From the NCBI GenBank assembly GCA_016934605.1, contig JAFGSO010000172.1, forward strand, positions 1 to 35,285: a DNA stretch of 35,285 bases, in the 5' to 3' direction. Each line of letters opens with the position of its first letter. The stretch's first letter is position 1. A model generated the notes under the pieces. That model saw only the letters and a list, made by a program, of their open reading frames with translations. It ran no database searches and was not told where the DNA came from. This stretch comes from Calditrichota bacterium (lineage in GTDB: Bacteria > Calditrichota > Calditrichia > RBG-13-44-9). Shown here one piece after another: positions 4,011 through 19,508 of the stretch. The position numbers and the translations under genes are program-made.

Positions 4011-6851
4011 ATGAAGCAATTTTCACTGATTATTTTTCTGATTTTATCCCTTTCCATTTTCTTGCCGGAAAAATCTGAGTCACAATGGTATTATTACGGA
4101 CGGAATAAAGTTCAATACACAGATTTCGAATGGCATGTTCTTAAAACAGATCATTTTGATATTTACTATTACCCTGAGATGGCAGAGCTCGCGGAAAAAG
4201 GAGCCGCATTCGCAGAGGAGAGTTATCGCTATCTGGAAAACAAATTTAATTTCACAATTAACAGGCGGATCCCGCTCATCTTCTACAGTTCCCATCTCCA
4301 TTTTCAGCAAACCAATATAACCCCTTACTTTGTGCCGGAAGGAGTCGGCGGATTTTTTGAATTTCTAAAGGGTCGGGTTGTTATACCGAGCGATGGAAAC
4401 ATCAACCAGTTCCGTAAAGTCATTTTCCATGAACTGGTGCACGTTTTCATGCATAGTAAGATTTATTTCGAAAACAAAGAACATTCTCGATTTGAGGGTA
4501 CTTATCCCCCGCTCTGGTATGTGGAGGGACTTGCAGAATACTGGTCCTCTGAATGGGATGCCCAGGCGGAAATGGTGATAAGGGATGCTGTTTTGAACAA
4601 TTATATTGTTCCGCTTTCCAATATGTATCAGATAAACGGAACCTTTATGATGTACAAGGAAGGTCAGGCTATTCTCACCTACATAGCCAACACCTACGGC
4701 GAAGAAAAAATTCTTCAATTGATGGAAGAGATCTGGAAATATGGAAAATTCTCAGATGTTTTTCAGGAGGTTGTTGGAAAAACCTATGAACAGTTCGATC
4801 AGGAATGGCTGTATTATCTGAAAAAAAAGTACTATCCCCTTATGGAAGACAATGATTTTTCAAAAATGATAACGTATTCGGTTGTCACACGGGGATATAA
4901 CTTTAAACCGGCTTATTATAAAGATGTCAACGATGAGGAATATGTTGTGTTTTTCGGAAACCGGGGCGGTTACTCAAATATCTATATTAAAGATCTACGT
5001 CCTTTCCGGCTGGAACAGAAAGAGAAAGCGGAAATTCTGGTTAAGGGAGAAAGAACTCCGGATTTTGAATCACTCCATCTTTTTTCCAGCAAAATTGATG
5101 TTGATAAAGCAGGGAATCTTACATTTTCCTCCAAGAGTGGTGAGAATGACGCCCTCTACATTTACAGCATACCGGAGCGTCGGGTGCTAAAAAAACATCA
5201 ATGGTCGCAGATTGTCGCAATTTCCTCTCCATCATTCTCTCCGGACGGACATAAAGTCGTCTTTGCAGGAGTGGATTTCAGCGGAAAACAGGATCTTTAT
5301 ATTCTGGATCGGAATGAAAATTATTTAATCCGTTTAACCGATGATTTTTATGAAGATAAAGCTCCTTCTTTCTCTCCGGACGGACGAAAAATCGTTTTTT
5401 CTTCCGATAGAACCATGCATGGGAAAGACTGGTGTTACAACCTCTTTATCTACGATCTGGATACAGACCTGATACATTATGTAACATACGGCCGATTTCA
5501 GGACGAGACACCGGTCTGGAGTCCTGATGGTCAATATATCGCATTCACATCCAACAGGGATACTTCTTTGAATTTGTGGATAGCAGATTTATCTGACATA
5601 CAGGACTGGGAAATCGGATTTTATGATCGGGTAAAGCTAAAACAGATTTCCCGGTTTATTAATGCTGCTTTCGATCCGGAATGGACAGACGATAACCGTT
5701 TACTTTTTACTGTTTATGAGAACAATCGTTTTGAGATCCGAATGATGGACAAAATTAAAGAAAAAAGTGACTCCACTCAGTCCATTGTCAAGAATGAAAA
5801 AATGTTCGGACATCGCCAGTGGAAATATAATCGTGTTCCCGGAAGCAAAATACAATCGAAACTACGCTATCAGAAAAAATATGATCTTGATATTGCTCAG
5901 GCCCAGGTCAGCCAGGATCCGTTCTGGGGGACCACCGGTGGAGCGGTTTTTGCATTCACGGATATCCTGGGAAATGATCAATATTATTTCATGCTGTACA
6001 ACAATGCTCAGAGTCGAGGTGATTTTTTCAAGAGTTTTAACGGAGCAGTTACCAAAGTTTCTCTGGAAAACCGCCTTAATCACGCCTATGGCCTTTTCCG
6101 CTTTTCAGGAAGATATTTTAATTATAAAGACGGCTATTTCTATGAAGATAGGGTTGGAGGATTCTTTACCCTCAGCTATCCATTCTCACAATATAACCGA
6201 ATGGAATTTAATACCAACCTGAGTTATTCGGATAAGGATGTTATTGGACTGGACAGACGACATGCCATTATCACTTCCAATTCAATATCTTTTGTATCGG
6301 ATAATTCCATATGGTGGTATACCGGTCCCATGGAAGGTCATCGATATAATATTTCTGTGGGCAATACCTACGATTTGAGATGGTCGAATGTCAACTATTA
6401 CACATTCAGAGCGGATCTCAGACAGTATACCCGTCTCGCACCCCGGCTGAGTCATGCCATCCGTGTACTCCTGCTATATAATGAAGGGAAAGATTCCCGC
6501 TGGTACTATCTTGGGGGAAGCTGGGATCTGCGGGGATACCGGCAATGGTCTATCCGCGGGGAAAAAATCTTTTTTTTATCCAATGAACTAAGATTCCCAT
6601 TTATCGATTACATCGGTATTAAATTTCCATTCCTGGGTCTTGGTTTTCGGGCCATTCATGGAGCACTTTTCCTCGATGCAGGGAATGCATGGAATGACGA
6701 GTGGAATGGTTTGCTGGGAAGTACCGGTTTTGGTTTTCGCATGAATTTCGGAGGATTTCTGGTACTCAGACTGGACATTGGTAAAAAAACTGATTTCAGA
6801 GAATTTACTTCCGATTGGTTTACTCAATTCTTTTTTGGATGGGATTTCTGA
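4011..6851 (+). CDS. Omp85-superfamily outer-membrane protein with N-terminal peptidase-MA-like (HExxH) domain and PD40/TolB-like beta-propeller
   Basis: Signal peptide; HELVH (aa140-144, nt 4428-4442) followed by 'PLWYVEGLAEY'; PD40 repeats 'PSFSPDGHKVVF', 'PSFSPDGRKIVFSSDR', 'PVWSPDGQYIAFTSNR'; Omp85 barrel motifs 'LGGSWDLRGY' (VRGF/Y equivalent, aa840-843) and 'FLDAGNAW'; C-terminal beta-signal ending 'FFFGWDF'. Confidence 0.88.
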   Translation: MKQFSLIIFLILSLSIFLPEKSESQWYYYGRNKVQYTDFEWHVLKTDHFDIYYYPEMAELAEKGAAFAEESYRYLENKFNFTINRRIPLIFYSSHLHFQQTNITPYFVPEGVGGFFEFLKGRVVIPSDGNINQFRKVIFHELVHVFMHSKIYFENKEHSRFEGTYPPLWYVEGLAEYWSSEWDAQAEMVIRDAVLNNYIVPLSNMYQINGTFMMYKEGQAILTYIANTYGEEKILQLMEEIWKYGKFSDVFQEVVGKTYEQFDQEWLYYLKKKYYPLMEDNDFSKMITYSVVTRGYNFKPAYYKDVNDEEYVVFFGNRGGYSNIYIKDLRPFRLEQKEKAEILVKGERTPDFESLHLFSSKIDVDKAGNLTFSSKSGENDALYIYSIPERRVLKKHQWSQIVAISSPSFSPDGHKVVFAGVDFSGKQDLYILDRNENYLIRLTDDFYEDKAPSFSPDGRKIVFSSDRTMHGKDWCYNLFIYDLDTDLIHYVTYGRFQDETPVWSPDGQYIAFTSNRDTSLNLWIADLSDIQDWEIGFYDRVKLKQISRFINAAFDPEWTDDNRLLFTVYENNRFEIRMMDKIKEKSDSTQSIVKNEKMFGHRQWKYNRVPGSKIQSKLRYQKKYDLDIAQAQVSQDPFWGTTGGAVFAFTDILGNDQYYFMLYNNAQSRGDFFKSFNGAVTKVSLENRLNHAYGLFRFSGRYFNYKDGYFYEDRVGGFFTLSYPFSQYNRMEFNTNLSYSDKDVIGLDRRHAIITSNSISFVSDNSIWWYTGPMEGHRYNISVGNTYDLRWSNVNYYTFRADLRQYTRLAPRLSHAIRVLLLYNEGKDSRWYYLGGSWDLRGYRQWSIRGEKIFFLSNELRFPFIDYIGIKFPFLGLGFRAIHGALFLDAGNAWNDEWNGLLGSTGFGFRMNFGGFLVLRLDIGKKTDFREFTSDWFTQFFFGWDF

Positions 6852-8017
6852 TGAAACTGGCAATTCGGATGAATAAATACAAAATATTTCTACTGGTTTT
6901 ATCATTATCGACGGGATGTATTTTGTCCTGCAGCGGACTTATCAAATTAAAGGTCTCTGAAGAGGAACTGAGCTCAGACCAGGAAAAATGGACAACTGTA
7001 TTCTCATCCAATAACCGGCATAATTCGGTGGATTCAGACCTCATTCCCCCGTACCGGATCGCCTGGAGGAAAGGATACAAGTCTGTTATAACAGATCAAC
7101 CCCTGGCTGTGGCAGACCATCTGATATTTACCACCCGGAATGGAAACCTGGCTTTCCTGAATATATCCAAAGGTCAGATGCTTGGCGATGGACGGATTGC
7201 CCCTGGATTCGACCATGCCCCCGTCATTGAAAATTCCACTTTATTCTACGGCGCCAGTCTGGGAGAAAAAACTCTGGTAGCTTTGAATATGTTGAACCTG
7301 AAAAAAATCTGGGAAACCAAACTGGGACATGTTTATACCTCTCCTGTGATATGGAAGGAAAATATATACGTCGGGACCAATAATAATAAAATAGCAGCAG
7401 TGAATAAGAACAATGGTGAAAAAATCTGGCAATTCGATGCTGGCGCTTCTCCGGTTGGAATACCTGCAGAAAATGAGGGAAGATTATTTTTTTCTGATAT
7501 TCAGGGAAATCTGTATTGTCTGGATGCGGAAAGTGGAAAGGAAATCTGGAGAAAAACTCTTGAAACGAATGTATACAGCGGACCTGTAATTGCTGACGGG
7601 CGCTTATTCATCGGAACAACTGCCGGAACATTCTTCGCATTTTCTGCTGACTCTGGTAAGTTTTTATGGAGGACGCAAACTGAGGGTGCCATCTTTGGAC
7701 ATGCCTCTTACAGAGACGGTGTGGTTTACTTTGGAAATAATGCTCATGCAGTTCATGCCCTAAGGGCAGAAGATGGTAGTAAATTATGGAGTTTCAAAAC
7801 AGGCGGTATTGTAAATACAACACCTCTGGCCGGCAGAGAATATATATATGTTCTCTCCTGGGATAAAAAACTGTATATAATTTCCAGATTGGATGGTGAG
7901 GAGGTTTATCATATGGAATTTAATAAACCATTCAAGTCATCGCCGTTGATATATCGGAATAAATTGATTATACACACCGCAAATGATGATATCATTTGTT
8001 TGGAAAGCAGGGAATAG
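6851..8017 (+). CDS. PQQ-like beta-propeller repeat protein (BamB-like), probable lipoprotein
   Basis: Start reassigned to ATG 6851, which overlaps the upstream stop (TGATG); ATG 6869 is an alternative. Lipobox-like 'ILSC'. About 8 PQQ/BamB repeats ('AVNKNNGEKIWQF', 'CLDAESGKEIWRK', 'FSADSGKFLWRT', 'ALRAEDGSKLWSF'). Confidence 0.85.
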   Translation: MKLAIRMNKYKIFLLVLSLSTGCILSCSGLIKLKVSEEELSSDQEKWTTVFSSNNRHNSVDSDLIPPYRIAWRKGYKSVITDQPLAVADHLIFTTRNGNLAFLNISKGQMLGDGRIAPGFDHAPVIENSTLFYGASLGEKTLVALNMLNLKKIWETKLGHVYTSPVIWKENIYVGTNNNKIAAVNKNNGEKIWQFDAGASPVGIPAENEGRLFFSDIQGNLYCLDAESGKEIWRKTLETNVYSGPVIADGRLFIGTTAGTFFAFSADSGKFLWRTQTEGAIFGHASYRDGVVYFGNNAHAVHALRAEDGSKLWSFKTGGIVNTTPLAGREYIYVLSWDKKLYIISRLDGEEVYHMEFNKPFKSSPLIYRNKLIIHTANDDIICLESRE

Positions 8018-8030
8018 CAGAGGAATGAAA

Positions 8031-8795
8031 ATGAATAAATTAATCCTCATAATTTTGTTATTATCCTCTCTGGCCTGGGCCGGGGGACAAAAAATTGCCC
8101 ATTTGACCATATACTCTTCATCCGACGATATTGAAATCAGATTGAATTCGGCATTGCTTGGAAAAACGCCCATCCAAAAGCTCAGTCTGCAGGAAGGTCA
8201 TTATATCATAGAAGCTGTCAACAAAAATTCTGGTGTCTGGAGTGCTGAAAATGTTACCCGTGATATATTTCTTCAGAAAGGACAGGATACTACCATATAT
8301 ATTCATTTTCCTAAAATGGTGAAAATAAATTCCGTGCCCTATCACGCCAAACTGACACTGGATGACCAGTTCATCGGTCTCACACCGGCAACACTTGAAT
8401 ATGAAACCTACCGGGGGAAAAAATTCCTGCTCGAGAAATCCGGATATAAACCGGCAACTTTTGTTTTGGAGAATGACAAACCGCAGTTTTATACACTTGA
8501 ACCACTGGTTTTGAACAGGAATGAGGAAGAGAAACATTCATTCAGTCATTCACTTTTCCAATCGAATCTCAAAACAAAATTTTTATTCCTGACAGGAACC
8601 GTGGTAACGCACTGGCTTGCTTTTTATCTGAAAAATGAAGCGGATGATAATTTTGAGAAGTACTCTGTTACCGGCAATCCTGTTTTGATGAAAAAATACT
8701 GGGATAATACGCAAAAATATGATAGATGGTCCGATATTTCTCTGGGTGTATCTTATGCCTTGCTCGGTGGGTTAATATATACTGTAATCAAATAA
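8031..8795 (+). CDS. PEGA domain-containing exported protein
   Basis: GAGGA RBS at 8020-8024 supports ATG 8031 (the track starts at 7983). Signal peptide 'MNKLILIILLLSSLAWA'; two PEGA-like modules ('LNSALLGKTP...LQEGHY', 'INSVPYHAKLTLDDQFIGLTP...LEKSGY'); two hydrophobic segments at the C-terminus. Confidence 0.75.
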   Translation: MNKLILIILLLSSLAWAGGQKIAHLTIYSSSDDIEIRLNSALLGKTPIQKLSLQEGHYIIEAVNKNSGVWSAENVTRDIFLQKGQDTTIYIHFPKMVKINSVPYHAKLTLDDQFIGLTPATLEYETYRGKKFLLEKSGYKPATFVLENDKPQFYTLEPLVLNRNEEEKHSFSHSLFQSNLKTKFLFLTGTVVTHWLAFYLKNEADDNFEKYSVTGNPVLMKKYWDNTQKYDRWSDISLGVSYALLGGLIYTVIK

Positions 8796-9074: not shown

Positions 9075-9103
9075 TTGACAAGGTTAGGATTTTTATGTAT
9101 TTT
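9075..9103 (+). promoter_or_regulatory. Sigma70-type promoter
   Basis: Perfect -35 TTGACA (9075-9080), 17-nt spacer, -10 TATTTT (9098-9103), A-rich UP-like tract upstream; predicted start about 9110. Confidence 0.7.
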
Positions 9104-9109
9104 TTGATC

Positions 9110-9177
9110 GACCTGAAAAGGTCAAAAACCTCCCTCCCAACTCCGCAGGGGACACGCACCGTGTCCCCTGTTTTTTT
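9110..9177 (+). ncRNA. Putative ~68-nt small RNA (or attenuated leader) with a C-rich single-stranded segment
   Basis: Starts at the predicted TSS. GACCT-GAAA-AGGTC hairpin with GNRA loop (9110-9123), unpaired AAAAACCTCCCTCCCAACTCCG (9124-9145), then an intrinsic terminator. No ATG within the element. Confidence 0.6.
9146..9177 (+). terminator. Rho-independent terminator
   Basis: CAGGGGACACG-CAC-CGTGTCCCCTG (11-bp perfect stem, 9146-9170) followed by T7 (9171-9177). Confidence 0.88.
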
Positions 9178-9260
9178 ATTAAAGATGAATTAATGATCAA
9201 CTATTATTATTTTAGGGCGTTAGATTATGTAATATTGAATATTGATTTGGAGAATATTTT

Positions 9261-10667
9261 ATGAAACACTTACATCCGGTTATCTTATTCATATTAGTGA
9301 GCATAACCACCAATCAAGCACAAACAGGATTTATCCCTTTATCAATCGATCATGCGATTTTCAAAGCTGAAAAAAATAAAGTGTATCTGGAGATCTATCT
9401 CTCCTTCAACGAATCTCACTTGCAATATATTGATCAGGACCAACAGTATATGGCTGAGTACATGGCAACGGCACAGATACTACAGGGAGACAGCTTGCTC
9501 TTTCAGGATGTCGATAAACGGAAAAGTCAGCTGGATTCAATGAACGAAATTTCCGCCTACAGGAAATTTTTAAATATATTTGGATTCATTATTGATGACG
9601 GTAGCTATTCGGCAAAAATTACCGTTCAGGATCTGCATTCTCCCCGGAAAGGCGAGTATATATTCGATTTTGAAGCCCGACCATTTCCAGAACAGGAACT
9701 GATGATTAGTGATATTGAATTGTGCAGCCATATCAGCGCCGATACCGCAAAAGGTGATTTTCAGAAAAATTCTTTTCTGGTCATTCCCAACCCGGGAAGT
9801 ATTTTTAGTGTAAATATACCCGTGGTCTATTACTATGCAGAGCTTTATAATCTGAAAATGACAACCGGAGATCCCGGCCAATATAAATTAAGGACATCCA
9901 TCAGAGATTTAGAGGGTAATTCTGTTAAAGAATATCCCGAAAAAATCATAAAGAAACCCGGAGAAACCGCGGTTCTTGTTGGTGGTCATAATATTGTGAC
10001 CTTACTGTCTTCCACTTATTTTTTCAATATCGAAATTGAAGATTTGGACTCCCGGGAAATTACACGAACCTCAAAACGCTTCACTTTTTTTAAGCCGGAA
10101 ACTGAAGAAGGTCGTCCTGGTGATTCACTTTATGCAGCCGATAAAGAAACGGTTTCTATCGCGGAATATCTGCAGTACGGTGAAGAAGAACTTCTCACCC
10201 AATTTGAGAAGACCAGATATATCTCCACAAAAAAAGAACGGGATATTTTTAAGAATCTAAACCTTGACGGAAAAAGAGTATTTTTAGCCAGATTCTGGAA
10301 AAAATTTGATCCAACCCCCGCAACCGAGGTCAATGAATTTAAACAAAATTATACCGAGTTGATTAACTTCGCCGAAACCAATTTCTCCTCGATGAATAAA
10401 AAAGGCTGGGAAACAGACCGGGGACGGGTACTTCTTTCTTATGGCAGTCCTGATGAAATTGAACGGTTCTATATGGCTATTGATATGAAACCACATGAAA
10501 TATGGCATTATCATGAGTTGGAAGGCGGAGTGCTATTTGTTTTTGCCGATTTATCCGGATTTGGAGACTTTGAGCTGCTTCATTCAACCTACAGCAAAGA
10601 GCTATACCAGCCTGATTGGGAAAGATTGGTTAGAAGAACGCAGGGTGGATTTGATTATGAGCGATAA
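9261..10667 (+). CDS. GWxTD domain-containing exported protein
   Basis: GGAG RBS at 9249-9252; signal peptide; C-terminal 'FWKKFDPTPATEVNEFK...GWETDRGRVLLSYGSPD...WHY' is the GWxTD domain signature; beta-rich N-terminal region. Confidence 0.88.
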   Translation: MKHLHPVILFILVSITTNQAQTGFIPLSIDHAIFKAEKNKVYLEIYLSFNESHLQYIDQDQQYMAEYMATAQILQGDSLLFQDVDKRKSQLDSMNEISAYRKFLNIFGFIIDDGSYSAKITVQDLHSPRKGEYIFDFEARPFPEQELMISDIELCSHISADTAKGDFQKNSFLVIPNPGSIFSVNIPVVYYYAELYNLKMTTGDPGQYKLRTSIRDLEGNSVKEYPEKIIKKPGETAVLVGGHNIVTLLSSTYFFNIEIEDLDSREITRTSKRFTFFKPETEEGRPGDSLYAADKETVSIAEYLQYGEEELLTQFEKTRYISTKKERDIFKNLNLDGKRVFLARFWKKFDPTPATEVNEFKQNYTELINFAETNFSSMNKKGWETDRGRVLLSYGSPDEIERFYMAIDMKPHEIWHYHELEGGVLFVFADLSGFGDFELLHSTYSKELYQPDWERLVRRTQGGFDYER

Positions 10668-10701: not shown

Positions 10702-11610
10702 TCAGGGAACAATAATTTTTCTTCTCTGTTCACAGGTTGGTCCTGGTGAAGCGTCCGCCTCATGATCCAGACCACAATACTCTGCACGGACATAACAGTC
10801 CCGGTAATCTGAAATTCCCTTTAGACAGAATAATTTACGTCTTGCTGAGGTATGATGATCCTTCTGGTAATCTACATCCACCAGAGCGCCAAATTCACAC
10901 TGAACGCATTTTTCGGGGTGCTCGGAAAATTCTGTGGCCGTTTCACGTGCCATCTGAATGGATTGATCATTCCATGCCGGCTCACCTCCGCATGAGAGCA
11001 CCTCGATCCCGCGGCTCCGATAAAGAATAATTCGTCCATGATCTGCTTTAATGTGGGCAAAACCTTCTATCCTGGCCCCGGCACCAATTCTTAAATCCTG
11101 GTAATAACGCTGCGATAAAAGCATATACAGTGGATCCTCAAAGTGTTCACGGTCTGTGAACGCATTGTCCAGAACTACGATATAACCACGGAACGATAAA
11201 AAACTGGTCTTTGGAAATACTTTCTGAACAAAATGGGGTTTTACTGCCCTCACAGTTCCTGCAAATTCTATTTGTTTATATTCTTTCTCTGCCAACCAGT
11301 CCTCAAATTCCTCAAACTCTTTCAAAAATGCCGCATATTCCTCCTCAGATATCTGAAGCTCCGGATAATTATGTATCTTTTCTTCATAAAAATCCCGACA
11401 GCCATAGCATTTCCGTCCCACATGAGAATAACCGCGATGACAGCTGTTCTTTTTATTCAGTTGCCTGCATTTCCATCGAAAATAAATGCAACCCTCCGGG
11501 AAACAGGATTTTTCTTTCAAAATATGATATACAGAAATAGAATTTTTGAACCCCCGGTGGGACTCATGAACACAACGAAATATGTCTGTTCTTTTATATA
11601 AATTTTTCAT
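10702..11610 (-). CDS. Cysteine-rich hypothetical protein (putative metal-binding, possible central OB fold)
   Basis: GAGAGG RBS precedes ATG 11610 (the track starts at 11646). 14 Cys, mostly in N- and C-terminal clusters (CxHxxH, CxxxxC, CxxC twice). No signal peptide. Ends TGA TAA. Confidence 0.8.
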   Translation of the reverse strand: MKNLYKRTDIFRCVHESHRGFKNSISVYHILKEKSCFPEGCIYFRWKCRQLNKKNSCHRGYSHVGRKCYGCRDFYEEKIHNYPELQISEEEYAAFLKEFEEFEDWLAEKEYKQIEFAGTVRAVKPHFVQKVFPKTSFLSFRGYIVVLDNAFTDREHFEDPLYMLLSQRYYQDLRIGAGARIEGFAHIKADHGRIILYRSRGIEVLSCGGEPAWNDQSIQMARETATEFSEHPEKCVQCEFGALVDVDYQKDHHTSARRKLFCLKGISDYRDCYVRAEYCGLDHEADASPGPTCEQRRKIIVP

Positions 11611-11840
11611 GACCAGCCTCTCTGAAAAATAGAGAATAAATTTCATGACATCAAATACAAAATAGAAAGCCCGGTCAGGCTAAATTCCGGAAACAATCCA
11701 AACCCACCCACATTATTATTACTTTGCGTAAAGTGCTACATCATATTATTTTTTATCTGTGCAGACAGATGAAACACTTGTGAGTAATTTTATACTAATT
11801 TAAAAATTGATGTGGTGAGGTTTACTCAAGGATATCCCCT

Positions 11841-13354: not shown

Positions 13355-16300
13355 TTATCGCAACAGGACTAACTTTCTGGATTTGACAAAATCCCCGGCT
13401 GTGAGCCGAATAATATAAATACCGCTGGCCACAGGCACACCGTCATCGTTGCGTCCATGCCACTCTACCCGTTGCCCTCCGGGATCGGCATACCTATCGA
13501 CCAGTGTCCGGACCTTCTGCCCCAGAATATTATATATTTCCAGCTTTACAAGTCCTCCTGCGGATAAACGATATGGGATTGTCGTTATCATATTAAATGG
13601 ATTCGGAAAATTGGGATAAAGCTCATATGTCAGCCCATCAAAAAAAACCGGACCCGTTGATTCAATCAGCAGGATATCTCCTGCATAATTTGGTTTGGTT
13701 GTAATAATCCGGAAGACTGTGCCTTCTTCCGGCATCACAGCATTCAGGTTTGCCGGGAAATCTATGCTATAAACATTGCCGCCATCCCAGTTAACCAGCA
13801 CCGTCCTTGCCAGAACTTCCGGACTATCATAATCGTATGCTCCAGATCTTGCATCTGTAACATACTGATCATAACCGGCTGTCCCTGGTTCGGTATTTTG
13901 GGGATTCATCCAGTAAACCCAGTCCATATAAGGATCGTCCTCACCGTCAGAAACAATATGATCAGCAGGATTAATATTATACAATGTATCACCCGATTGT
14001 GCATTTCCAATATCATTGAAAATCCATGGTATCATCTTAAAATCATCTCCAGGATCTTCCGGGGTATTGATACCGATATTCCATATTTCAAATGGAACAT
14101 GTGCAAACAGATCACTATCAAAAACCCAGGCGGCAAGACTACCGGTGGAATTAAACCTCATTTCAAAATCATATGGAATAATTCTGTCAGAATTATCATT
14201 CCGCACTACCCGTTCTTTGAAATAGGAATATGTCCCATCATTGAAAAAGGTCATCCCGGTATGAAATCCCCAGACAGCATTTGAGTTAACCTGCTGTACG
14301 CCTGGAGTCGGATGGTCAGTCCCATCCGGATAACGTTCGTTATACAAGAGAGGAAATCCATTCCGATTAAATGCAAAGCAACCAATATCCGGGGGAACAA
14401 TCGGTCCGGCGGCGTTTGCTGTCACCAGAAACTGTTTAAAATCTTTTTGGAGTCCTTTTACGATAAATTCTATCCCATCAATCACCGGATGAGGATAATG
14501 GAGTTCATTGCTGGGAACTCCATCAACATATTTGTCTGTCCCGGTTGTGACATCAAAAAGACGCCATAGTAATTCTCCACTCTCCGAATTTTCATAAAAA
14601 TGAAGCTGGTAAATATGACGATTCAGCAATGAGGGATCGGCAACCACCGGAAAAATATTTTCTGCTGTTCCAGTTACCGACTGCACCTGCAATGTGTCTC
14701 TCCAGATGGAGGGGGATGCCCATTTGATGAGAGGATGCACATAAGATTGGATTATTGTATGGCTATCAAAAGCGAGGAAAATATAAAATGTAAGAAAATC
14801 TCCGGATTCCGGACCATAGAGTATAAGAAAGAGTGAATCGTTTCCAACCTTGCTTCCGGGAGAAATTATTTGGTGACTGCTACCACCATAATTCTCATTC
14901 GAAAAGAATATTGATGAAATAGAATTCAGCATGTCTGTGTTTTTTACCGAAAATCCGAGATACACTTTCTCATGATAATTGATCCCCCTGTCCTGCCGGC
15001 CGTTTTCCCAGATTACCTGCCAATCTGTCAATTCCGGGGTAGGCCGCAAAGTAAGATATTTTTCAATTGCGGGAATAGTATCTACTCCTGACATGGTTGT
15101 AACAAAAACATCTGCCTGATAGGGATATTTTCGGTTATTAACTGTTGTGCTGTTTCCCCAGATCCCGTCTCCGGCCAGACTGTCCTGATGCTGACCGTCA
15201 TCGTAAAGCTCTACATTAAAGGACGGTTCATTTCCCTCGGAGGGATAAAAAGTCAATCGACATCGGCTGGCTGGTAGAAAATCCTGCAGGTCAATCCGGG
15301 AATTTATTTTAGTTTCAGTATTAGACGGTTGCACTATGGATAAAGAGGTTTGTGGACTAATCAGTTTTCCCGTTTTAAACTTACGGCGGACATCACGCAC
15401 ATGATTTTGCATTTGTTCCACAGAGCGCAGACGGTTGTCTCCCAGCCCACCAACCGTGGCAATAATCACCTCCTGGGTATCTCCCGGTGCCATATCAAAT
15501 GGGCCACTGCAAAATGCGAATCTACGGGCACCGGTCCAAAAATTAGCACCCTGACCATCAATATCACCTGTCCCGGTTACAGGATCTCCGTTCAGGGGAA
15601 ATTTAGTAATCTGCCCGGTATTTCGATGGGTAAACGGTACCTGTTTCATACTGTCGGGAATGGGAAGGAATACATTCAGTGCATTATACCACTGGAGTGT
15701 TCCTGTGTATTCCTGTAAAACCGGGTCGCGCCATTCAGAATTACCGACAGCACCATACCAGAACGAAGTCATCGGACGGTTCGCGTAGTCCGGCACCGGC
15801 TTAAAATTAAAAAGTGCGGTATCTCCTGGCGACGGGTAGCGTGGACCCTGCAGTAAAACATAAGCGAACGCCGGAGGGGCGATTCCGAAGGGATCGAACT
15901 TTTCGTCAGAAGCGGTTCCATTATATACATATCCCATGTTCAGAACGGAGTCACAGCCACACAAGTCGTTGCTAAAATCTCCCAGATCACAATCACTCCA
16001 CTGACTCACAAACATGGAATCGATAGAGAAACCGGATTTATTGATCAGACGGTAGCGGCGAAAAACGGTTTCGCCCAGAGCTCCTTCCACATCGTAGGCC
16101 GATATGGTCACCTGTAATTCCAGTCCGATGGGATTAGATCCGTATAGAAAAGCTACTCTGGCCGGATCCAGATCATTACAGACGAACCAGATCACCTGGT
16201 CAGCTCCCTGGAGTCCCGGCTCCTCTCCCAGATGAGGTTCATACATTCCATTCATATTGTCATCATAAAACGGGGCACCGTATTCAACCGGCCACTCCTC

Positions 16301-16849
16301 CCAGTCCCTGGCATAGTTGGCCCGGATGCTGTCAATATGTGCCACACTTACGGTCGACAGCTCGATCCCGAAAAATTCGGCGGCATCCTGAAGCAGTACA
16401 CTTGCAGAAACCGTCCTGTAATCCCGTCTGATCCGGTAAATCCGAACATCCGGATCCTGCGGACTCTGGGCATTGCCGGGACTGATGATTCGTCCGGAAA
16501 CGGTACCGGTATTATAAGTCTGTCCCCCGACGCGGAGTGTCGGGTATGACCCGTCATGAATGTATCCTCCCCAGATCAGTCCATCCTGAAACACAACATT
16601 CCCGGTACCACGGGGATACCTGATTCCCGCATTTCCAGTGAGCGGATTTATGCCTGAGGTACCATCCCAGCAAATCCAGCCTCCTATTTTATTGGCATTG
16701 TAAAGCGTATACTTAATCTTGACCGGAGAAAATTCTTCACCATTGGAAATCTTTTCTGTCAGCTCTGGCGGGATCTCTGCACGGATGAAACTGATTAAGA
16801 ATAAAAAAACTAAAACGAGAAAAGCTAAATGGAATCTCATCCTTTTCAT
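13355..16849 (-). CDS. Large secreted multidomain protein with choice-of-anchor-X-like motif and T9SS type A/FlgD-Ig C-terminal sorting domain
   Basis: Signal peptide; N-terminal domain 'NANKIGGW...YPRGTG.VVFQDGLIWGG'; internal 'LYDDGQHQDSLAGDGIW'; C-terminus 'LYPNFPNPFN..TTIPY...LEIYNILGQKVRTLV...WHGRND.G..VASGIYIIRL...RKLVLLR'. Confidence 0.8.
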   Translation of the reverse strand: MKRMRFHLAFLVLVFLFLISFIRAEIPPELTEKISNGEEFSPVKIKYTLYNANKIGGWICWDGTSGINPLTGNAGIRYPRGTGNVVFQDGLIWGGYIHDGSYPTLRVGGQTYNTGTVSGRIISPGNAQSPQDPDVRIYRIRRDYRTVSASVLLQDAAEFFGIELSTVSVAHIDSIRANYARDWEEWPVEYGAPFYDDNMNGMYEPHLGEEPGLQGADQVIWFVCNDLDPARVAFLYGSNPIGLELQVTISAYDVEGALGETVFRRYRLINKSGFSIDSMFVSQWSDCDLGDFSNDLCGCDSVLNMGYVYNGTASDEKFDPFGIAPPAFAYVLLQGPRYPSPGDTALFNFKPVPDYANRPMTSFWYGAVGNSEWRDPVLQEYTGTLQWYNALNVFLPIPDSMKQVPFTHRNTGQITKFPLNGDPVTGTGDIDGQGANFWTGARRFAFCSGPFDMAPGDTQEVIIATVGGLGDNRLRSVEQMQNHVRDVRRKFKTGKLISPQTSLSIVQPSNTETKINSRIDLQDFLPASRCRLTFYPSEGNEPSFNVELYDDGQHQDSLAGDGIWGNSTTVNNRKYPYQADVFVTTMSGVDTIPAIEKYLTLRPTPELTDWQVIWENGRQDRGINYHEKVYLGFSVKNTDMLNSISSIFFSNENYGGSSHQIISPGSKVGNDSLFLILYGPESGDFLTFYIFLAFDSHTIIQSYVHPLIKWASPSIWRDTLQVQSVTGTAENIFPVVADPSLLNRHIYQLHFYENSESGELLWRLFDVTTGTDKYVDGVPSNELHYPHPVIDGIEFIVKGLQKDFKQFLVTANAAGPIVPPDIGCFAFNRNGFPLLYNERYPDGTDHPTPGVQQVNSNAVWGFHTGMTFFNDGTYSYFKERVVRNDNSDRIIPYDFEMRFNSTGSLAAWVFDSDLFAHVPFEIWNIGINTPEDPGDDFKMIPWIFNDIGNAQSGDTLYNINPADHIVSDGEDDPYMDWVYWMNPQNTEPGTAGYDQYVTDARSGAYDYDSPEVLARTVLVNWDGGNVYSIDFPANLNAVMPEEGTVFRIITTKPNYAGDILLIESTGPVFFDGLTYELYPNFPNPFNMITTIPYRLSAGGLVKLEIYNILGQKVRTLVDRYADPGGQRVEWHGRNDDGVPVASGIYIIRLTAGDFVKSRKLVLLR

Positions 16850-17477: not shown

Positions 17478-19508
17478 TCATCGAACCAGCAGCATCTTCC
17501 TGGACAACTTTCGATTCTCAAAATGAATTTGATATATGTAAATTCCTGAAGAAACCTGCTTGTCGTGATCATCACACCCATCCCAGCGAATTTCCTCGCC
17601 CCTGGTAAAGTATCCGTCTATGAGTGTCCTGATCCTACTTCCGGTAATATCAAAAATTTCAAGCTTTACTTTGCCGCTGGTATCAATCGTAAACGGAATC
17701 ATAGTGGTTCCATTGAAAGGATTCGGATAATTCTGAGCCAGAGTGAAATCCCGGATTACCTCATTACCTGGCTCCAAAGTGGCTATCGGAACCTCCCTGC
17801 TCATCTTTAATATTCTCAAATCCGGATCAAACTGGACAACCAGTGGAGAACCGCTGATCGGGATATGAAAATCCTGAACTTCCAGTGAGTCCCAGATCAT
17901 CAGTGTATCCCGGTTAATATGTGTGTCTATCACCCTCACTTCTATAGGCATTTTATAGAGATGACTGTAACCATCGAGTTTCTGCTTCTGTGCAATCCAA
18001 AAATGCAGGTAATCCTGTCCATTCTGCTGATAATGTGTATAGCCCCAATCATAAACCGGATAATAAGGTTCATAAATCCACTGCTGAAAAAACCAGTCAA
18101 GATCCATTTCACTTTTCATTTCACAAAAATCTCGAAACTCTTCAGTGGTTGCATCATCGTAAGCAAATGAGGGATCATTCGGATAATCATGCATGATTTC
18201 AAAGAAAACGGAATCTCCGACAACGTAACGCAACATATGCAGTACCCACATGCCTTTGGTATAAATAGTTCTTGAGAAAAGGTTATTCGGATTACTGGTA
18301 TCATAACGGTAAACAGCCGATCTGAAAATTGTTGAAAAATTATAGGGTTCCAGTGTACTGTTAACATATGTCCGGAATGAACTTTTATCATAATATGCTT
18401 CAATCCATAAAGCCTCACTGTAAGTCGCAAATCCCTCATTCAGCCAGATGTGATGCCAGTCCCGGCAGGTGACCAGATCCCCAAACCACTGATGAGCCAG
18501 CTCATGTGCATAAATAGTTTCCCAGCTGTCAGACACTGTTCCAATACTTGTACAGGTCTGATGCTCCATACCACCGCCCCATCCGAAAAGAGCATGACCA
18601 TATTTTTCTTCAATAAAAGGATATAAACCATACAATCGACTGAATACTTCCAGCATATCCGGTAATTTTTCAAATGCAGATCGGGCAGCTGTTAGCTGAT
18701 ACGGGTAAACATAATACTCAATCGGCATGAATTCACCCGGGGCAAATTGGAAAGAATCCGAAAAAGTTGTATAATTGGCTATGGCCAGAGATACCAGATA
18801 AGTGGTAATCGGATATTTTTCTTTCCAGATAAAAGTTGTGGTATTATTCGGATTGGGAATCTGGCCCTGAAGCAATCCGTTGGATGCGACGGTATATCCC
18901 GTTGGCACCGTTACTGCAATTTTCACGGAATCCATCTTGTCCGACGGATCATCTTTGCATGGCCACCAGGTCTGTGCCGCATACGGCTCACTCAGAGTAT
19001 ACACACCGTTACCAAACCAGAATCCCGCAAGTCCTTCCGGACGCGGAATACCGGAATAATTAACTGTTACGGTAAATGTTTCCCCTGCATCATAAACAGT
19101 GTCCAGAACAACTGCCAGCACCCAGTTGGAATGAGTGTAACTATTTATATTCCCCGACACCCACATATCCGACCAGTAAGGGGGATAATCTTCCCGTGAA
19201 TCAAAATTCAGATTTATGCGATCCAAGCCGTTTACATTGCTTCGGAACAGTCCCGTGACGGTACCTTCAAGGTTCTGTGGATCCATGCTGATTCGAAAAT
19301 CAAGATCATAATAAAGTTGATCATAGTCAGCAGAATCCGGCATACTGATTTTTGAGAATACTTTCTTATACAAAGTGAAATTGTTCTTTTTAATATCGGG
19401 TAATTTTTTACTGGCTTCTATCAATTCCTCCAGCCGATCTGGAGTAATCTGCTGTGAAAGTCCATTTGACACCATCAGCATTAGAATTAGAAATTTCCAC
19501 AATCTCAT
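17478..19508 (-). CDS. Secreted M1-family zinc aminopeptidase with T9SS-type/FlgD-Ig C-terminal domain
   Basis: Exopeptidase motif 'GGMEH'; 'HELAHQWFG...WLNEGFATY' (HExxH-x18-E); catalytic Tyr in 'YTKG'; C-terminal 'AQNYPNPFN...SSGIYIY...RKMLLVR'; GGAG RBS. Confidence 0.93.
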   Translation of the reverse strand: MRLWKFLILMLMVSNGLSQQITPDRLEELIEASKKLPDIKKNNFTLYKKVFSKISMPDSADYDQLYYDLDFRISMDPQNLEGTVTGLFRSNVNGLDRINLNFDSREDYPPYWSDMWVSGNINSYTHSNWVLAVVLDTVYDAGETFTVTVNYSGIPRPEGLAGFWFGNGVYTLSEPYAAQTWWPCKDDPSDKMDSVKIAVTVPTGYTVASNGLLQGQIPNPNNTTTFIWKEKYPITTYLVSLAIANYTTFSDSFQFAPGEFMPIEYYVYPYQLTAARSAFEKLPDMLEVFSRLYGLYPFIEEKYGHALFGWGGGMEHQTCTSIGTVSDSWETIYAHELAHQWFGDLVTCRDWHHIWLNEGFATYSEALWIEAYYDKSSFRTYVNSTLEPYNFSTIFRSAVYRYDTSNPNNLFSRTIYTKGMWVLHMLRYVVGDSVFFEIMHDYPNDPSFAYDDATTEEFRDFCEMKSEMDLDWFFQQWIYEPYYPVYDWGYTHYQQNGQDYLHFWIAQKQKLDGYSHLYKMPIEVRVIDTHINRDTLMIWDSLEVQDFHIPISGSPLVVQFDPDLRILKMSREVPIATLEPGNEVIRDFTLAQNYPNPFNGTTMIPFTIDTSGKVKLEIFDITGSRIRTLIDGYFTRGEEIRWDGCDDHDKQVSSGIYIYQIHFENRKLSRKMLLVR

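Follow-up and report, generated by a model that had tools for sequence, protein, structure and literature searches.

A conserved gene trio encoding a protease-propeller Omp85 protein, a BamB-like lipoprotein and a PEGA-hairpin protein in Calditrichota and related bacteria

Introduction

Omp85 proteins are central to the building of the outer membrane. To our knowledge, the types that have been studied are the β-barrel assembly machinery (BAM), TAM (short for translocation and assembly module), two-partner-secretion proteins and PlpD, and PlpD is the one studied Omp85 we know of with an N-terminal enzyme. This work concerns three adjacent open reading frames (ORF1 to ORF3) in a 35,285-nucleotide stretch of a Calditrichota bacterium genome (GenBank assembly GCA_016934605.1, contig JAFGSO010000172.1), referred to here as the window. 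ORF1 encodes an Omp85 barrel fused to a zinc peptidase and a β-propeller, ORF2 a BamB-like lipoprotein, and ORF3 a protein with PEGA domains and a long helical hairpin. Together they very likely constitute a real, dedicated envelope module, which belongs to an Omp85 subfamily that has been catalogued but not studied.

The architecture of ORF1 was first catalogued by Heinz and Lithgow (2014), who defined a WD40-Omp85 cluster in which a TolB-like β-propeller replaces the POTRA domains before the Omp85 barrel, and who likened it to a BamA-BamB fusion without assigning a function (PMC4104836). A later paper refers to a subfamily with "divergent WD40 and peptidase domains" (PMC11358297), and in 2024 the WD40 and peptidase subfamilies were called not well characterised (PMC11116518). 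With its PD40/TolB-like propeller and Omp85 barrel, ORF1 matches the description of the WD40-like subfamily. The available text of these papers gives neither a function nor partner genes, and no functional study or partner-gene description was found in the published literature, a search that did not cover the supplements of PMC4104836, where neighbours or taxa may be listed. A first-pass annotation of the locus had proposed a candidate for an undescribed system; this holds for the partner set, which has no description in the literature found, and does not hold for the architecture. What is added here is the partner set with its coupling and three-way co-occurrence, a relocation test, the helical hairpin of ORF3, and a division of the subfamily into two paralogous types, of which type 1 is partnered and type 2 is not.

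Several described systems share features with this locus. BamA carries five POTRA domains, while TamB combines an inner-membrane anchor with a long β-taco (DUF490) domain. In the tricorn, S9 prolyl oligopeptidase and DPP IV families, a propeller gates the peptidase. As in BAM, ORF1 has a 16-stranded barrel with the loop-6 RGY motif and is encoded alongside a BamB-like propeller lipoprotein. Unlike BamA, ORF1 has no POTRA domain and is absent from the five matches of this genome to the BamA equivalog TIGR03303, and unlike BamB, ORF2 scores 136 bits against the BamB equivalog TIGR03300, under its cut-off of 285.2. BamB binds BamA at POTRA 3, and BepA and other M48 zinc proteases clear stalled substrates from BAM (PMC13067283). 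The presence of an HExxH zinc protease at an Omp85 machine is shared with BepA, which serves as the model for the quality-control role proposed below; BepA is a separate soluble M48 protein, whereas the predicted ORF1 protease is of the Peptidase_MA_2 type and fused to the barrel. The available part of a paper on the Bacteroidota BAM (PMC12611786) describes other subunits, none of them ORF1, ORF2 or ORF3.

PlpD is an Omp85 protein whose N-terminal enzyme domain is kept in the periplasm (PMC11116518). Like ORF1, it places an N-terminal enzyme on an Omp85 barrel, a scaffold reused for a non-insertion function; it differs in having a lipase (patatin) domain and one POTRA, in forming homodimers, and in having no reported partner genes. 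TAM spans the envelope through TamA and TamB (PMC11014939), and it too pairs an Omp85 protein with a co-encoded partner, which in the case of ORF3 is possibly anchored in the inner membrane. ORF3 differs from TamB in consisting of two PEGA domains and a hairpin with no TamB/DUF490 domain, and ORF1 from TamA, which has three POTRA domains. Finally, ORF1 joins a peptidase to a PD40-type propeller as do tricorn, the S9 prolyl oligopeptidases and DPP IV, but these are serine peptidases of the cytoplasm or periplasm that lack a membrane barrel.

Organization of the Locus

The three ORFs lie on the forward strand and are tightly linked (4011-6851, 6851-8017 and 8031-8795). Their features, and those of the ORF1 domains, are as follows.

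ORF1, 4011..6851, forward strand: 946 residues; signal peptide, zinc peptidase, propeller and Omp85 barrel (type-1 protease-propeller Omp85)
ORF1 peptidase domain, 4092..4871 (residues 28-287), forward strand: mostly helical MA-clan zinc peptidase with HELVH (H140, E141, H144) and E172
ORF1 propeller, 4875..5774 (residues 289-588), forward strand: six-bladed PD40/TolB-like β-propeller
ORF1 linker, 5775..5882 (residues 589-624), forward strand: 36 residues, variable, low model confidence
ORF1 barrel, 5883..6848 (residues 625-946), forward strand: predicted 16-stranded Omp85 barrel with loop-6 LRGY, FLDAG and a C-terminal G-W-D-F
ORF2, 6851..8017, forward strand: 388 residues from the ATG of TGATG; BamB-like PQQ-propeller lipoprotein
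ORF3, 8031..8795 (alternative start 8025), forward strand: signal peptide, two PEGA β-sandwich domains and a C-terminal long helical hairpin

ORF1 and ORF2 meet in a TGATG at 6849-6853, in which the TGA stop of ORF1 (6849-6851) overlaps the ATG start of ORF2 (6851-6853). ORF2 ends with a TAG at 8015-8017, after which ORF3 has two possible starts. The ATG at 8031 leaves a gap of 13 nucleotides and has a GAGGA (8020-8024) seven bases upstream, and the ESM Atlas record of the protein begins with this methionine; the ATG at 8025 leaves a gap of 7 nucleotides. The first-pass annotation had described three exported, co-directional genes with TGATG coupling and a 13-nucleotide gap, and these features and their coordinates are correct in the sequence. 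The ORF1 motifs that it named (LRGY, FxDxG and a terminal Phe) are likewise present in the translation as LRGY, FLDAG and ...FFFGWDF, and its call of ORF2 as a PQQ-propeller lipoprotein agrees with the Pfam match to PQQ_2 (E 2.4e-40) and an invariant lipobox cysteine. The order, overlaps and motifs recur across phyla, which confirms that the arrangement of the three ORFs is more than chance.

Conservation of Gene Order and Co-occurrence

Related loci were collected by a pattern scan with one genome per species, which gave 562 confirmed relatives; the best 80 loci were kept, and their neighbours were called by profile searches of all six-frame ORFs. The record titles of the kept loci name Calditrichota, Ignavibacteria, Ignavibacteriales, unclassified "Bacteroidota" metagenome-assembled genomes, KSB1, Kryptoniota, Rhodothermales and Neomarinimicrobiota, which amounts to at least six phylum-level groups as labelled. 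Of the 72 loci with at least 1200 bp of downstream sequence, 61 have ORF2 immediately after ORF1 in the same orientation, and one further case (L072) was missed by the coordinate filter. Where at least 2100 bp is present, both ORF2 and ORF3 follow ORF1 in 45 of 64 loci. The gene-neighbourhood linkage of PQQ-propeller and PEGA genes anticipated by the first-pass annotation is thus conserved in several phyla. The junctions are conserved as well: a "...MGFLM..." reading across the end of ORF1 marks the ORF1/ORF2 overlap in most loci, and in 44 of 48 loci no more than 30 nucleotides separate the ORF2 stop from the first possible ORF3 start, the most frequent spacing being -4 (a four-base overlap).

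Loci that lack ORF2 are confined, in a tree of 74 ORF1-type sequences that excludes seven loci with ORF1 fragments shorter than 850 residues, to one clade of eight plus a single further locus (L063). In all five genomes of such loci that were searched, a full-length ORF2 is located elsewhere, and in the four regions fetched it is followed by ORF3 each time. The ORF2-ORF3 pair has moved, and has not been lost, where ORF1 is unlinked.

An ORF1 match is found in 85 of 86 Calditrichota genomes, and 71 of the 86 have an ORF2 match with an E value of 1e-60 or below. Caldithrix abyssi carries an ORF1 homologue (P0097). In the 71 Calditrichota genomes whose coordinate lists were compared, ORF2 is directly downstream of ORF1 in 67, and contig ends intervene in the other four. 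Co-occurrence was also tabulated in 101 genomes drawn evenly from the phylum to which locus L055 belongs; because these genomes are related, the counts describe the sample and do not amount to a statistical test. A full-length ORF1-type protein occurs in 27 of these genomes and ORF2 in 26: 25 genomes carry both, 2 have only the ORF1 type, 1 has only ORF2 (as a partial match), and 73 have neither. ORF2 adjoins ORF1 in 22 of the 25 genomes that carry both. ORF3 is found in 19 of the 101, all of them among the 25 and all with ORF3 directly after ORF2. In Calditrichota the module is nearly universal, and it is common among Ignavibacteria-like bacteria, Rhodothermales and related lineages.

A second, paralogous type of protein shares the peptidase-PD40-barrel layout of ORF1 and has a longer loop 6. 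Over its C-terminal part, identity with the ORF1 barrel is 28% (E 7e-29).

Type-2 protein, L099:838-3993, forward strand: about 1050-1120 residues; also encoded in the genome of the window on contigs C500, C214 and C270

Type 2 is more widespread than the ORF1 type in the 101-genome sample, where it occurs without the ORF1 type in 26 genomes, none of which has ORF2. Furthermore, none of 12 type-2 loci from Calditrichota has an ORF2- or ORF3-like neighbour.

These counts bear on whether the three genes are merely neighbours, with ORF2 being the BamB of this lineage for the canonical BamA, ORF3 unrelated and the linkage a matter of co-regulation. The genome has seven PF01103 matches and, as the first-pass annotation proposed to check, a separate canonical bamA on another contig (C90; TIGR03303 466 bits against a cut-off of 297). 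ORF2 is its sole strong BamB-like gene, and physical contact among the three products is something that we infer. However, ORF2 accompanies the ORF1 type in 25 of 27 genomes as against 0 of 26 with type 2 only and 1 of 48 (the partial match) with neither, the start/stop overlap of ORF1 and ORF2 is conserved, and ORF3 occurs only beside ORF2 (19 of 19). In addition, ORF2 distances correlate best with those of the ORF1 propeller (r 0.87, partial 0.64, 39 taxa), which is a weak lead, since shared ancestry inflates such values. Because ORF2 tracks ORF1-type genes and not BamA across genomes, we do not read it as the general BamB, and we give little credence to an arrangement of mere neighbours. 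ORF2 and ORF3 are read here as dedicated partners of ORF1 and not as general BAM subunits.

The first-pass annotation also suggested looking for GWxTD genes beside the module, and a GWxTD-domain gene adjoins it in the window.

GWxTD-domain protein, 9261-10667, forward strand: TIGR04514 101 bits

Only 1 of 64 loci, plus a locus from the same genus (L100), has such a gene next to the module; the linkage is not conserved, and the gene was rejected as a fourth member. In some loci, a Crp/Fnr-family regulator (cNMP_binding and HTH_Crp_2 domains) stands immediately after the ORF2 homologue (L027:4092-4871, L031:13890-14804 and L039:8800-9579).

Domain Architecture of ORF1

ORF1 was aligned with 59 full-length relatives that are 29-55% identical to it (alignment A1), and the AlphaFold2 model built from this alignment has a mean predicted local distance difference test score (pLDDT) of 89.7 and a predicted TM-score of 0.89. 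The N-terminal domain matches Peptidase_MA_2 (PF13485) with 35.4 bits in the Pfam scan, against a cut-off of 32.4, and with 38.1 bits when scanned alone. H140, E141, H144 and E172 are invariant in the 59 relatives, and the HExxH...EGxAE pattern is kept in 73 of 74 ORF1-type sequences. An HExxH motif, a downstream glutamate and a score above the cut-off place ORF1 among the MA-clan zinc metallopeptidases. Against the PDB, the profile of the domain gave two weak matches only, both to M9 collagenases (E 0.05 and 0.29), and the better alignment (E 0.05) falls at the W-x-EG-AEY stretch. E172 would be the third zinc ligand, judging from its 28-residue spacing and this weak alignment. Structure searches used the whole ORF1 model and barely probed the peptidase fold. 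On its conserved HExxH and EGxAE motifs the peptidase is apparently active, and it is also the best conserved of the ORF1 domains, with a mean p-distance of 0.42, whereas the barrel has 0.47 and the propeller 0.59.

The central propeller is matched by PD40 (E 1.8e-21), with DPPIV_N also among the Pfam matches, and by TolB chains in sequence searches (E 1e-14 to 1e-15). TolB is its closest solved relative: structural comparison gives 2ojh (Z 26.0, root-mean-square deviation 2.5, 247 residues aligned) and 1c5k (Z 24.8), and Foldseek with the ORF1 model returns TolB at 1.3e-10 and tricorn 1k32 at E 1.7e-8. This resemblance could point to a Tol-Pal-like tether, in which the propeller would bind Pal or the cell wall, the module would link the outer membrane, the wall and, by way of ORF3, the inner membrane, and the peptidase would act on wall peptides or lipoprotein links. 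ORF3 may indeed be membrane-anchored, and no TolB above the family cut-off of 343 bits was detected in this genome, whose assembly is 84% complete (best match 93 bits). ORF1 itself, however, scores 102.9 bits against the same TolB equivalog (TIGR02800), and the 1c5k alignment covers the TolB propeller only (residues 191-431), leaving the N-terminal domain unaligned. Moreover, one of the 29 PD40 matches in the genome may be a true, divergent TolB, and across the loci the module has no conserved pal- or tolQRA-like neighbour. A tether of this kind is considered quite improbable.

The propeller is joined to the barrel by a linker that is poorly conserved except for W604 and Y620. No POTRA family is among the ORF1 Pfam matches and no POTRA-like fold appears in the model, and because the 36-residue linker is too short for a POTRA domain, ORF1 as modelled is a POTRA-less Omp85. 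With only this poorly conserved linker between propeller and barrel, it falls outside the classical Omp85 definition. The C-terminal domain is nevertheless of Omp85 type. In the predicted structure, 16 long strands occupy residues 625-944, and residues 625-946 align with Deinococcus radiodurans BamA (8xnb; Z 23.4, 306 residues). Sam50 (7btw; Z 22.6), Flavobacterium johnsoniae BamA (9n2d; Z 21.7) and TamA (8us4; Z 20.5) also match, the alignments covering 279-306 residues each, and Foldseek agrees. The model and these matches bear out the 16-stranded C-terminal barrel put forward in the first-pass annotation. All 45 PDB matches of the barrel profile at E 1 or less are Omp85-type chains. PF01103 is matched with 37.8 bits (cut-off 24, E 2e-9) by residues 601-946 alone and with 36.5 bits in the genome scan, although it is not listed in the Pfam scan of whole ORF1 at E 0.01 or less. 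In the 59 relatives, conservation is 90% or more at R841 and G842 of the loop-6 RGY and at F887 and D889, and G943 is 98% conserved, while [LIVM]RG[YFW] is found in 65 of the 74 ORF1-type sequences.

The Partner Proteins ORF2 and ORF3

ORF2 is estimated from its repeat spacing to have about eight 40-residue repeats, taken as its number of blades. Its lipobox cysteine (C27) is invariant in 59 homologues and is followed by a conserved basic, strand-like motif, C-[SAG]-[GS]-[LI]-[RK]-[IL]-x-[RK]-P. This segment may be a site of contact with ORF1, and on the ORF1 side the propeller, to which the distance correlations point, is a possible site. Surface lipoproteins of Bacteroidota are marked by an acidic signal after the lipid-anchor cysteine. 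At positions +2 to +6 of ORF2, by comparison, D/E average 0.03 and K/R 0.97 over the 59 sequences, and this near absence of acidic residues argues for a location at the periplasmic face of the outer membrane.

The orientation of ORF2 is relevant to a second alternative, in which the barrel would export the peptidase and propeller in the manner of an autotransporter (type Vd) as a surface or secreted protease for digesting external food proteins. The genome is rich in exported peptidases, one of which is an M1 peptidase with a type IX tail encoded in the window, and an N-terminal enzyme on an Omp85 barrel resembles PlpD as originally interpreted (PMC4104836). The enzyme domain of PlpD is now reported to be periplasmic, however (PMC11116518). 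A folded peptidase-propeller unit of 560 residues, confidently packed in the model, would also have to cross the barrel; ORF2 lacks the acidic surface signal; ORF3 bears a helical hairpin; and the module is near-universal and stands among housekeeping genes. Export of the protease is thus regarded as very unlikely.

ORF3 matches PEGA (PF08308) in two stretches with 38.5 bits, against a cut-off of 20.8. In its AlphaFold2 model (pLDDT 91.6), numbered from the start at 8025, the PEGA domains form two β-sandwiches (residues 24-93 and 98-157), and helices of about 35 residues each (182-215 and 219-255) form a hairpin. The C-terminal motif is conserved. The hairpin ends are moderately hydrophobic, with the best 17-residue Kyte-Doolittle mean having a median of 1.63 in the first helix and 1.75 in the second, and the hairpin is probably a membrane anchor, most simply in the inner membrane. 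Fold searches with ORF3 gave generic β-sandwich matches only, and an Atlas look-up gave PEGA clusters. Pfam finds PEGA alone in ORF3, with no TamB/DUF490-type domain of the kind expected of a TAM partner.

With all three proteins described, the module can be compared with an insertase or translocase working in parallel to BAM and TAM on private substrates, the reading put forward in the first-pass annotation, where ORF2 would take the role of BamB, ORF3 that of TamB, and the peptidase would mature or proof-read the cargo. The modelled 16 strands match BamA, TamA and Sam50, the loop-6 RGY, FxDxG and C-terminal Gly are conserved, and ORF2 is BamB-like and coupled to ORF1; in addition, the probable membrane hairpin of ORF3 recalls the envelope span of TamA and TamB (PMC11014939). 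Several features speak against it. ORF1 is without POTRA domains, which handle the substrate in every Omp85 insertase or translocase studied so far, and ORF3 is without a TamB-like domain. The peptidase, with its invariant catalytic residues, is the best conserved domain of ORF1. No conserved cargo gene accompanies the module: the GWxTD gene is a neighbour in 1 of 64 loci, and housekeeping genes make up the flanks. Insertion or translocation as the main function is judged unlikely.

A Proposed Role in the Envelope

In an Omp85 barrel the N-terminus is on the periplasmic side, and the precedent of PlpD, the basic segment after the ORF2 cysteine and the hairpin of ORF3 all suggest, as the simplest picture, a periplasm-facing complex at the outer membrane. 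We consider it somewhat probable that the module is such a complex. A role as a quality-control or processing protease is a plausible but doubtful assignment. Taken together, the reading that we prefer, tentatively and with a little less than even confidence, is an outer-membrane-anchored, periplasm-facing protease complex for the quality control or processing of envelope proteins.

According to this proposal, the POTRA-less 16-stranded barrel would anchor the zinc metallopeptidase and the TolB-like propeller at the outer membrane, on its periplasmic face. The propellers of ORF1 and ORF2 would act as substrate-binding or gating platforms for unfolded or β-strand-exposing envelope polypeptides, which would be passed on to the HExxH site. 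There, at the membrane, mis-assembled proteins of the outer membrane or the periplasm would be degraded or trimmed. ORF3 would serve the complex as a tether or regulator, perhaps one placed in the inner membrane. By analogy with BepA at BAM, the module could be a single-operon counterpart of BamA, BamB and a BepA-type protease. Proteolysis is placed at the core of ORF1 activity because the HExxH motif is invariant and the peptidase is the best conserved domain.

A number of observations weigh against this proposal. About one quarter of the ORF1-ORF2 loci have no detectable ORF3, and in some of these a Crp-family gene occupies the third position. The ORF3 helices are of borderline hydrophobicity, with 18 of 35 sequences reaching a value of 1.6 in the first helix and 27 of 35 in the second. 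No substrate gene is linked to the module, and three M48 peptidase matches in the genome could make a quality-control role redundant. Type 2 is the same fusion without the partners, and the protease-barrel protein evidently can work alone. We infer the periplasmic topology, the physical contacts, the substrates and the role of ORF3, and for topology the reasoning draws on family precedent and sequence features. Finally, the loop-6, FxDxG and C-terminal Gly motifs found in working insertases are retained in ORF1, whose barrel may do more than anchor.

Because these three motifs are conserved, there is room for an active role of the barrel, for example in capture at its lateral seam. A bolder version of the proposed protease complex, which is speculative and in our judgement improbable, would make the module a third Omp85 envelope machine beside BAM and TAM. 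The seam of the POTRA-less barrel would capture mis-assembled or surplus β-barrel proteins and deliver them to the fused, propeller-gated zinc protease, with the BamB-like lipoprotein aiding and the inner-membrane PEGA-hairpin protein linking across the periplasm. Such a machine would extract and degrade, and would not insert.

Other Features of the Window

The flanking genes that are conserved among Ignavibacteria-like loci have housekeeping functions (PGI, a PEP-utilising enzyme, polyprenyl synthase, PHP and lumazine synthase) and are not counted as parts of the module. In the window, the module is followed on the forward strand by a sigma-70-like promoter (TTGACA at 9075) and an element of about 80 nucleotides (9075-9181 in all), which combines a small hairpin with a C-rich single-stranded stretch (CCUCCCUCCCAACUCC) and, at 9145-9171, a 12-bp GC hairpin with a U-run. 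The element folds with -30 kcal/mol (z -5.3), and it is 87-97% identical in all five other genomes of the genus, lying just downstream of the module in those whose coordinates were compared. It has no Rfam match, nor did a scan of the whole window give any Rfam family at the gathering score. The element may be a small RNA with a seed resembling an anti-Shine-Dalgarno sequence, or only an operon terminator.

Further along, three genes on the reverse strand are of separate interest.

Uncharacterised ORF, 10702-11646, reverse strand: 314 residues with no Pfam or NCBIfam match; conserved in a genome of the same genus (L100, 467 bits)
FlgD_ig-like protein, 13358-16849, reverse strand: 1164 residues, with a C-terminal FlgD_ig-like domain as sole Pfam match
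M1-family peptidase, 17481-19508, reverse strand: carries a type IX secretion C-terminal sorting domain (Por_Secre_tail)

Type IX secretion evidently exports proteins in this organism.

Implications

Should quality control or extraction be the task of the module, it would reveal how faulty outer-membrane proteins are removed in bacteria that do not have the proteobacterial set of BAM accessory proteins. ORF1 would also offer structural work a barrel, a propeller and a protease that are naturally and covalently fused. The co-occurrence of the three genes makes the question testable in cultured relatives such as Caldithrix abyssi.

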